DNA of 64,000 bases from Escherichia coli (GTDB lineage: Bacteria > Pseudomonadota > Gammaproteobacteria > Enterobacterales > Enterobacteriaceae), in NCBI RefSeq assembly GCF_030013595.1, contig NZ_CP122768.1. One strand, 5' to 3'. How positions within the stretch are numbered: position 1 is the stretch's first letter; every line of letters starts with the position of its first letter. The translations under genes were made by a program, and so were the position numbers. Under the pieces are notes generated by a model. It did no database searches. It was given only the letters and a program-made list of their open reading frames with translations, and was not told where the DNA came from. Below are positions 63,225 through 63,956 of the stretch, piece by piece.

Positions 63225-63956
63225 TTACTTCCTTCGCTTGTGTTCAAGATATTTTTCTGTAATCAGCATTTCAAAAAACTCTCCTGTTCTCAGACCGTAA
63301 ACAGTTCTGAGTTCATCAAGCATTTCTTTCGCATTGCTTCTTATATGTATATTAATAGCCTTTTTACCATCACTCCGATATTTGTCTTTTTGTTTTTTTT
63401 GATGCCAGGCATGATTTATGCGTGTTCTGAACAGTTCAATGGTATCAGGTGCCTCTTTCCATAAAGCAAAGGCGACGAGAGAGGCAAGATAATATTCTTT
63501 CGTTGAAGATGGTATGAACCACCGGGTCACCGGGTTATGTACCGGATGTGTTTCATCCTGTTTTTGTTTCAGTCTTGTCCAGAACCACTGACACATTTCA
63601 TCATCGTCAGGAAGGAGCCACTTAAACTTTTGACAAGCGCTTTTATTTTTAAGCCACGTCTGCCTGAGTTCCTCGAGGTATATGCTTTTTGCATTTTTAT
63701 TAATTAAAGCATGACAGGAATCAAAATATGAAATGATTACTTTTATTCGTTCGTTATGGGATGATGGATTATCCGGAAGGTTACTTTTTTTGTAAGTATT
63801 TAACGTTTCATCGGTAACTGTTCGTCTTTTTCTGACTTCAATTCCGTTTTTTATCCCTGATGAATTATGGTTTATTTCCGGGAAATTTGTATGGTCTTCC
63901 TTCGACAGATAAATAGTAGTCCAGGTAAAGAAAGTCGCAAGTTCGTCAGTTTTCAA
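63225..63956 (-). CDS. Hypothetical island protein (243 aa), basic, Trp-rich
   Basis: Long ORF upstream of the YeeP-like gene; no recognisable motif. Confidence 0.4.
   Translation of the reverse strand: MKTDELATFFTWTTIYLSKEDHTNFPEINHNSSGIKNGIEVRKRRTVTDETLNTYKKSNLPDNPSSHNERIKVIISYFDSCHALINKNAKSIYLEELRQTWLKNKSACQKFKWLLPDDDEMCQWFWTRLKQKQDETHPVHNPVTRWFIPSSTKEYYLASLVAFALWKEAPDTIELFRTRINHAWHQKKQKDKYRSDGKKAINIHIRSNAKEMLDELRTVYGLRTGEFFEMLITEKYLEHKRRK

Follow-up and report, generated by a model that had tools for sequence, protein, structure and literature searches.

The open reading frame (ORF) listed at 63225–63956 (minus strand) of the 64,000-nt stretch of Escherichia coli DNA that we analysed (hereafter, the window) is the visible part of a 339-codon island gene, and we infer from sequence comparison and structure prediction that its product is a DNA-binding protein of the ribbon–helix–helix (RHH) type. 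The gene is part of the backbone, not of the cargo, of CP4-type islands (islands of the CP4-44/CP4-57/CP4-6 kind). In the reading that we prefer, and to which we assign a probability of roughly 0.55, a dimer of this RHH protein would bind a dyad in the spacer of its own promoter and repress its own gene, and would serve as a regulator within the island backbone.

The gene runs past the window edge

The ORF listing gives a protein of 243 aa that begins at a TTG codon (63954–63956) and ends at a TAA stop (63225–63227), both on the minus strand, as are all window features described below. The earlier note had taken this for a well-formed ORF. The frame remains open to the window edge: translated to the last full codon, it yields 257 residues and runs without a stop from 63956 onwards, so the 5′ limit of the 243-aa ORF is set by the window and not by the gene. 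At the gene's GC content of 37%, stop codons make up ∼ 6.8% of random codons, and 257 stop-free codons would arise by chance with a probability of ∼ 1e-8.

We compared positions 62400–64000 with 5,426 complete E. coli genomes by megablast. At least 80% of this segment is covered in 246 genomes, with a top identity of 99.8%. Two genomes that are 99.0–99.8% identical over the segment carry an annotated CDS of 1020 nt (339 aa), which RefSeq names 'transcriptional regulator' (WP_096191135.1) in one case and 'hypothetical protein' (WP_063100932.1) in the other. The window holds the 3′ 776 nt of this gene (63225–64000, minus strand), comprising codons 83–339 and the TAA stop; the listed ORF corresponds to residues 97–339, and its supposed TTG start is the internal codon for Leu97. 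Residues Trp96, Leu97 and Lys98 are invariant among orthologues. Codons 1–82, the promoter and the candidate operator (see below) lie beyond the window edge and were placed from the near-identical E. coli genomes, in which the ATG lies 245 nt past the edge and is preceded by a GGAG Shine–Dalgarno sequence. The window copy differs from the protein of the reference locus (L001) by a single substitution, S179A. The alignment with orthologues from Edwardsiella, Rahnella and Yersinia begins at residue 1, and many of the invariant residues are situated in the N-terminal part that is missing from the window. When all ORFs of the window were searched with a profile HMM of the family, the one at 63225–63956 was the only match (E = 2e-73).

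The ORF at 63225–63956 is real, and its size of 243 aa is an edge artefact. The earlier note had named as a possible objection that the ORF might be a fragment of a larger, disrupted gene extending past the window edge. The larger gene exists, with 339 codons, and the disruption does not apply: the gene appears to be cut by the window only and to have an intact 5′ end in the source genome. The ORF as a complete, free-standing gene was rejected on the grounds of the open frame, the 339-aa annotation and the conserved N-terminal 82 residues. A free-standing 243-aa cargo protein would account for the listed length with its TTG start and for the lack of a match to any curated family. We consider it scarcely credible, given that no stop closes the frame before the edge, that near-identical genomes annotate 339 aa, that other genera share the conserved N-terminal 82 residues, and that the position of the gene in the island backbone is fixed while the neighbouring cargo varies.

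Protein family and predicted fold

The earlier note had recognised no motif in the ORF and had suggested a profile and structure-based homology search. The curated libraries agree with its first statement: we searched Pfam and NCBIfam with both the fragment and the full protein, and PHROGs and PADLOC with the full protein, and all matches remained below the cut-offs. The suggested search did reveal a large family and an RHH domain at the C-terminus, with no curated family at threshold. A word-indexed search found eight clusters from E. coli, Edwardsiella tarda, Rahnella and Yersinia kristensenii, 48–60% identical over the full length, and an exhaustive profile search raised the number to 492 representative clusters at E ≤ 1e-3, of which 242 reach E ≤ 1e-10; most of these relatives have 290–340 aa. 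The family comprises about 500 clusters at 50% identity and has neither a curated model nor a solved structure.

AlphaFold2 with an alignment of 138 relatives yields a model with a pLDDT of 91 and a pTM of 0.85; with seven orthologues the pLDDT is 53. The model consists of three all-helical modules, at residues 1–87, 88–204 and 205–291, followed at residues 292–338 by a strand and two helices. In sequence terms, module 2 (residues ∼ 86–195; 63660–63989, minus strand) carries an F-x-W-L...W-x-W motif and a poorly modelled loop at residues 114–160. By sequence, module 3 (residues ∼ 196–290; 63375–63659, minus strand) is clearly a duplicate of module 2: aligned by hhalign, residues 86–195 and 196–290 match with a probability of 98.3% and an E-value of 1.8e-14. 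The N-terminal module 1 is probably a third copy, since a profile–profile comparison of sub-alignments relates it to the two repeats with a probability of 67% (E = 5e-5).

The modules share the signature F-x-W-L...(C)-x-W-x-W, which explains the Trp richness of the protein. Trp209, Trp220, Trp222 and Trp262 are nearly invariant across the 138 relatives. The basic, Trp-rich composition described in the earlier note is confirmed by the translated fragment, which has a pI of 9.4, 17.3% Lys and Arg, and eight Trp (3.3%).

A single-sequence search of the PDB returned noise only (ribosomal protein L9, E = 0.25), and Foldseek found no match at E ≤ 0.001 among PDB and BFVD viral structures; the first 290 residues have no convincing resemblance in either collection. 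The combination of three repeated helical modules with a C-terminal RHH domain is unmatched in Pfam, NCBIfam, PHROGs, PADLOC, the PDB and BFVD, and the last ∼ 45 residues are the only part that is of a known kind by sequence and fold. For the 290-residue helical part, oligomerisation and the sensing of a signal or partner are both guesses. A literature search found no experiment or paper on the 339-aa island protein.

The C-terminal ribbon–helix–helix domain

The C-terminal domain (residues 291–339; 63228–63374, minus strand) has the β–α–α fold of about 45 residues that is typical of RHH proteins, with a strand, KKAINIHIR, and helices at residues 303–316 and 320–338. The strand appears as coil in the monomeric AlphaFold2 model. 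Across the family, it shows an alternating pattern of Asn298, His or Tyr300, and Arg or Lys302. The earlier note had guessed at nucleic-acid binding from the abundance of Lys, Arg and Trp; the guess is supported by this RHH domain of ∼ 49 residues, and the composition is not the reason.

The best curated matches fall on the C-terminus and are weak (E = 0.01–0.05). PF10723 scores 13.9–15.6 bits (E = 0.016–0.05) against a cut-off of 21 and PRK13702 scores 15.0–15.6 bits against 87, so neither reaches its threshold. Among the 138 relatives, 28 match PF10723 (best E = 3.7e-6), while others match RHH_1, RHH_5, RHH_7 or RHH_10, and the family profile finds 2kel in the PDB with E = 0.007. We rejected a filing under RepB/RepA (PF10723, PRK13702): the scores are below the cut-offs, and size, domain order and genomic setting differ. 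The database names 'hypothetical protein', 'transcriptional regulator' and 'replication regulatory protein RepB' rest on the weak match of 45 residues.

We compared the protein with the copy-control repressors CopB/RepA2 of IncFII (PRK13702), RepB-RCR_reg (PF10723), ORF56 (pRN1)/SvtR-type proteins (2kel, 2k9i) and CopG of pMV158 (2cpg). It shares with them the β–α–α fold in the last ∼ 45 residues, and these families are its best, albeit weak, sequence matches; like theirs, its gene is the neighbour of an initiator-like gene and carries a dyad within its promoter. Unlike these repressors, which are single-domain proteins of 45–90 aa, it has 339 aa, with the RHH domain behind ∼ 290 residues of apparently triplicated helical modules; it is chromosomal and island-borne, and it scores under the curated cut-offs. 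Among RHH repressors and antitoxins at large (Arc/MetJ/CopG; TacA, ParD/PrpA, TraM N-domain), the RHH domain is usually N-terminal, and the remainder is a short tail that binds a partner. The island protein has the reverse order, and its additional part is large, folded and built of internal repeats.

MatP consists of a helical bundle and an RHH domain and binds a 13-bp palindrome. In its predicted architecture, the island protein partly resembles it (3vea, 4d8j, 7nyw) in having a helical bundle directly before the RHH domain and a short palindrome of similar length as its candidate site. It differs from MatP in having three helical modules instead of one and in terminating, in the AlphaFold2 model, right after RHH helix 2, without the C-terminal coiled coil of MatP; moreover, MatP is a core chromosomal gene, whereas the 339-aa protein is encoded by an island gene. 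The MatP models of Pfam (PF06303, PF17414) found no match in the protein, in its 138 relatives or, at E ≤ 10, in 10 C-terminal halves. In the PDB profile search, MatP appears with E = 0.34, and hhalign aligns E. coli MatP over 30 RHH residues with a probability of 34%. We therefore rejected membership of the MatP family, there being no significant match of sequence or fold outside the RHH domain.

A backbone gene of CP4-type islands

The gene is present in 255 of the 5,426 complete E. coli genomes, and all of its 262 copies are chromosomal, with none on E. coli plasmids; the O104:H4 strain 2011C-3493 is among the carriers. A tblastn search for a phage origin gave no match in 50,697 phage records. 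Among 72,556 plasmids, 21 match at ∼ 30% identity; these are large and mostly from Klebsiella, and the one that we inspected has the gene within an island-like block of similar type.

We examined 13 loci outside E. coli, from Edwardsiella, Rahnella, Yersinia, GCA_054552755.1, an element from a Tara Oceans metagenome, Hafnia, Tenebrionibacter, Siccibacter, Superficieibacter, one enterobacterium, two Vibrio and a Klebsiella plasmid. In all 13, a YagK/YfjJ (inovirus Gp2-type) gene, usually together with alpA, is divergent from the RHH gene, and the RHH gene opens a rightward block whose end is formed by DUF932, antirestriction, RadC, DUF987, CbeA/CbtA and DUF4942 genes. Its position relative to the CP4 backbone genes is conserved across hosts. 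In E. coli, too, the Gp2-type gene is on the opposite strand, ∼ 6 kb away behind IS fragments. The marine element is compact: an integrase gene and the RHH gene are followed, divergently, by alpA and genes for a YagK-type protein, a helicase, DUF932 and RadC.

The cargo around the RHH gene varies and includes Ag43, WYL, Gabija-like, TIR and BREX genes. The earlier note had suggested that the ORF is mobile-element cargo, a view at odds with its fixed position among varying cargo. Since, in addition, a GTPase gene follows it in only half of the loci (see below), the RHH gene is a backbone gene that is not tied to the GTPase.

Several observations were made on the surroundings of the gene. The window contains the right arm of the island, with DUF4942, CbtA, CbeA, RadC, antirestriction and DUF932 genes at 53992–58702 (minus strand), and the gene for a 973-aa Ag43-type autotransporter at 59026–61947 (minus strand). 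Between the GTPase and Ag43 genes, Rfam places an IS102 RNA (RF00124) at 61891–62127 (minus strand), with 68 bits against a gathering threshold of 46 and E = 1.4e-10; we presume this family to be equivalent to the IsrC sRNA of K-12. We found no tRNA gene, be it pheV, pheU or any other, in the 64-kb window.

The alpA/YagK side of the islands carries pairs of genes for an OLD-TOPRIM ATPase and a UvrD helicase (Gabija-like), a gene for a TIR_2 protein and, in an E. coli relative, the BREX gene brxL. These anti-phage-type genes are located at 3320–6908 in L003, 2142–5743 in L005–L008, 662–1609 in L007 and L008, and 16918–17601 in L002. This side of CP4-type islands may be a hotspot for defence cargo.

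A 7.2-kb contig from a MAG labelled 'Collinsella sp.' (L019, JAIJJM010000108.1) carries a copy of the RHH gene whose protein is 98% identical to that of E. coli, together with the promoter dyad. Binning contamination is the most likely reason why a contig of E. coli type turned up in the bin of an actinobacterium.

In the CP4-6 island of K-12, the slot directly upstream of the YeeP/YkfA-type GTPase gene ykfA is occupied by perR (b0254), which encodes a LysR-type protein. PerR is a positional analogue only and is not homologous; the family HMM matched none of the K-12 proteins PerR, YagM, YagN, YagJ and YagL.

The downstream GTPase gene and the intergenic spacer

The earlier note had placed the ORF upstream of a YeeP-like gene. 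In the window this gene does lie directly downstream, whereas the tie that such an arrangement implies does not hold: of the 14 loci, seven have a YeeP-like GTPase gene next in line, and between the two genes lies a hairpin that resembles a terminator. The seven are E. coli, Edwardsiella, Rahnella, Yersinia and three other loci, in which the GTPase gene is adjacent and on the same strand. In the remaining loci, its place is taken by a WYL regulator or by other genes, and in the Klebsiella plasmid and marine copies no GTPase gene is found downstream.

The terminator-like element (63132–63170, minus strand) was found by a terminator scan between the stop codon of the RHH gene and the ATG of the GTPase gene at 63115. 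It consists of a GC-rich hairpin (63145–63170; folding z-score of −3.0) and a subsequent U-run (63132–63144). Hairpins with different stems and a U-run are present at the equivalent place in Edwardsiella, Rahnella and Yersinia, and an alignment of the hairpins shows compensatory changes in two of the five consensus pairs. As this element follows its stop codon, the RHH gene is probably a transcription unit of its own.

These data also bear on the idea that the RHH protein is an antitoxin-like or otherwise dedicated partner of the GTPase in a two-gene module. The genes are adjacent on one strand in the seven loci named above, RHH domains are common in antitoxins, and relatives of the protein give weak matches to RelB/DinJ and HicB. 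We nevertheless judge such a partnership to be very unlikely: the GTPase gene is absent downstream in the other seven loci, the hairpin lies between the genes, the RHH domain is C-terminal in a protein far larger than antitoxins, and in the window the GTPase gene is frameshifted while the RHH gene is intact. The class of type II RHH antitoxins was likewise rejected for this protein, on the basis of the C-terminal RHH domain, the length of 339 aa and the loci that lack the GTPase.

The spacer that precedes the GTPase gene (63116–63224, minus strand) has a layout of its own, with a motif, the GC-rich hairpin and a U-run that ends ∼ 15–30 nt before the GTPase ATG. The motif, CAGACAGATATTATCTCC (63178–63195, minus strand), lies just 5′ of the hairpin and holds the palindrome AGATATTATCT at 63180–63190. 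In the form TTCAGA(Y)NNATATTAYC it is kept in all seven aligned loci that contain the GTPase, including the distant clade, and it probably belongs to the leader of the GTPase gene and not to the RHH gene. The same layout is found at 10979–11102 in L003, 10952–11055 in L005, 10952–11068 in L009 and ∼ 8990–9100 in L021, L022 and L024. If transcription does stop at the hairpin, the GTPase gene would have to be transcribed in some other way, and an attenuator, a leader and a small RNA are possibilities for the hairpin and U-run.

The YeeP-like GTPase gene itself (62244–63115, minus strand) is frameshifted in the window. Relative to L001, which is 99.8% identical over 62400–64000, it has a 1-nt deletion at ∼ 62452/62453 that splits it into ORFs 62441–63154 and 62244–62630. 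In the window this gene is a pseudogene; the RHH gene upstream of it is intact.

The promoter and a candidate operator

Upstream of the ATG of the 339-aa CDS, the best σ70-like site is TTGATA-17-TAAAAT, which agrees with the consensus at 10 of 12 positions and whose spacer holds TCACTTAGTGA. The scan found nine such sites where eight are expected by chance, and the site is a consensus match only. The longest block that is invariant in the upstream regions of the four genera E. coli represents together with Edwardsiella, Rahnella and Yersinia is AATCACTNAGTGA. A candidate dyad, (A)TCACTNAGTGA, occurs exactly once in each 17–21 kb locus of these genera, and TCACTNAGTGA is always situated 52–77 nt upstream of the ATG. 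The E. coli form of the dyad is ATCACTTAGTGAC; it sits between the −35 and −10 elements, inside the spacer of TTGATA-17-TAAAAT.

Related elements are found in distant clades. Five further loci have the pattern ACTAC-N0-5-GTAGT once each, at a distance of 22–70 nt upstream from the gene match, with one unrelated match to it elsewhere. The Klebsiella plasmid copy has a dyad of the ACTAC..GTAGT type at −34, and related dyads are present in Vibrio and in the marine element. In the window, the only matches to TCACTNAGTGA are three with one mismatch each, a number that chance would explain. The alpA/yfjJ and GTPase promoters lack a second good copy of the dyad, and elsewhere in the island one-mismatch matches are scattered, with no consistent placement, so that nothing points to a regulon other than the RHH gene itself.

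A palindrome with 5-bp arms is expected about once per 170 nt, and the loci are partly related and are not independent trials. Since a short palindrome by itself is expected by chance, the argument for an operator rests on conservation and position. A dyad in the promoter of a DNA-binding protein with which it co-varies is the usual mark of an autoregulated RHH repressor, as in Arc, Mnt, CopG and MetJ.

A gene-less, AT-rich (34% GC) stretch of 1–1.5 kb precedes the RHH gene in those Enterobacterales loci that are most similar to the E. coli copy; it is located at 9846–11025 in L001 (just past the window end), 8912–10000 in L003, 8444–10000 in L005 and 8624–10000 in L009. Its sequence has diverged outside the last ∼ 110 nt, and searches of it for known RNA families, tandem repeats, iterons and centromere-like arrays were negative. 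H-NS-type silencing is one possibility for this gap, and a hotspot of recombination or insertion is another.

The dyad also bears on a different role, that of an architectural or accessory DNA-binding protein, which might resemble MatP, act at a centromere in the way of ParG/omega or mobilise the island from an oriT in the manner of TraY/TraM. The MatP scores are all non-significant and a C-terminal coiled coil is missing; each locus has a single dyad, which overlaps the gene's own promoter, and the gap holds neither iterons nor a centromere-like array. We regard an architectural role as unlikely.

Proposed mechanism

The mechanism that we favour is autorepression by the RHH protein. Two C-terminal domains would pair into a two-stranded β-ribbon, as in other RHH proteins, with Asn298, His300 and Arg302 on its DNA-facing side. 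The ribbon would read the candidate operator in the −35/−10 spacer of the gene's own promoter, and the bound protein would occlude RNA polymerase and so repress its own synthesis. We conclude that the RHH gene is probably autoregulated; another island or host factor could also be what binds the promoter dyad. It is more speculative that the helical part of 290 residues would serve in higher-order assembly or in sensing a signal or partner, and equally that the RHH protein might set the expression of neighbouring island modules.

An extension of the autorepressor explanation, from which it differs solely in the target, sees the protein as a repressor of the copy-control type that acts mainly on the divergent alpA–YagK/YfjJ genes and keeps the island quiescent. 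CopG (pMV158), CopB/RepA2 (IncFII) and ORF56 (pRN1) repress a plasmid initiator gene. The closest RHH matches of the island protein are PF10723 RepB-RCR_reg, PRK13702 RepA, RepC_IncLM and ORF56, the Gp2-type gene is its constant divergent neighbour (13 of 13 loci), and in the marine element the RHH and Gp2-type genes are separated by nothing but a 516-nt region that contains the dyad. The matches are all sub-threshold, however, and are confined to the generic RHH region; the assignment of YagK/YfjJ as an initiator is annotation only; and in Enterobacterales the dyad lies 1–4 kb from the YagK/YfjJ start, with no second copy near that gene or alpA. A main target among the divergent genes is thus possible, and to us doubtful.

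Implications for CP4-type islands

CP4-type islands occur in most E. coli genomes (a YeeP-type part of our query matched 4579 of the 5426 complete genomes). They carry Ag43-like adhesins, CbtA-type toxins and anti-restriction genes, with anti-phage systems nearby. Situated between the leftward YagK/YfjJ–alpA genes and the rightward block, the RHH protein is an obvious candidate for island control.

By analogy, a more far-reaching role can be imagined, which we consider improbable: the triplicated Trp-rich module might be a new sensor or partner domain and the protein a master switch of these widespread islands. Stl of the SaPIs is the known analogue of an island repressor that is released by a signal. 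If the same were true here, the contact of the RHH domain with its operator would silence the island, and a signal acting on the helical part, such as a protein of an infecting phage or conjugative element, would release this silencing. The excision or replication of the island and the expression of its anti-restriction and defence cargo would then be coupled to invasion.
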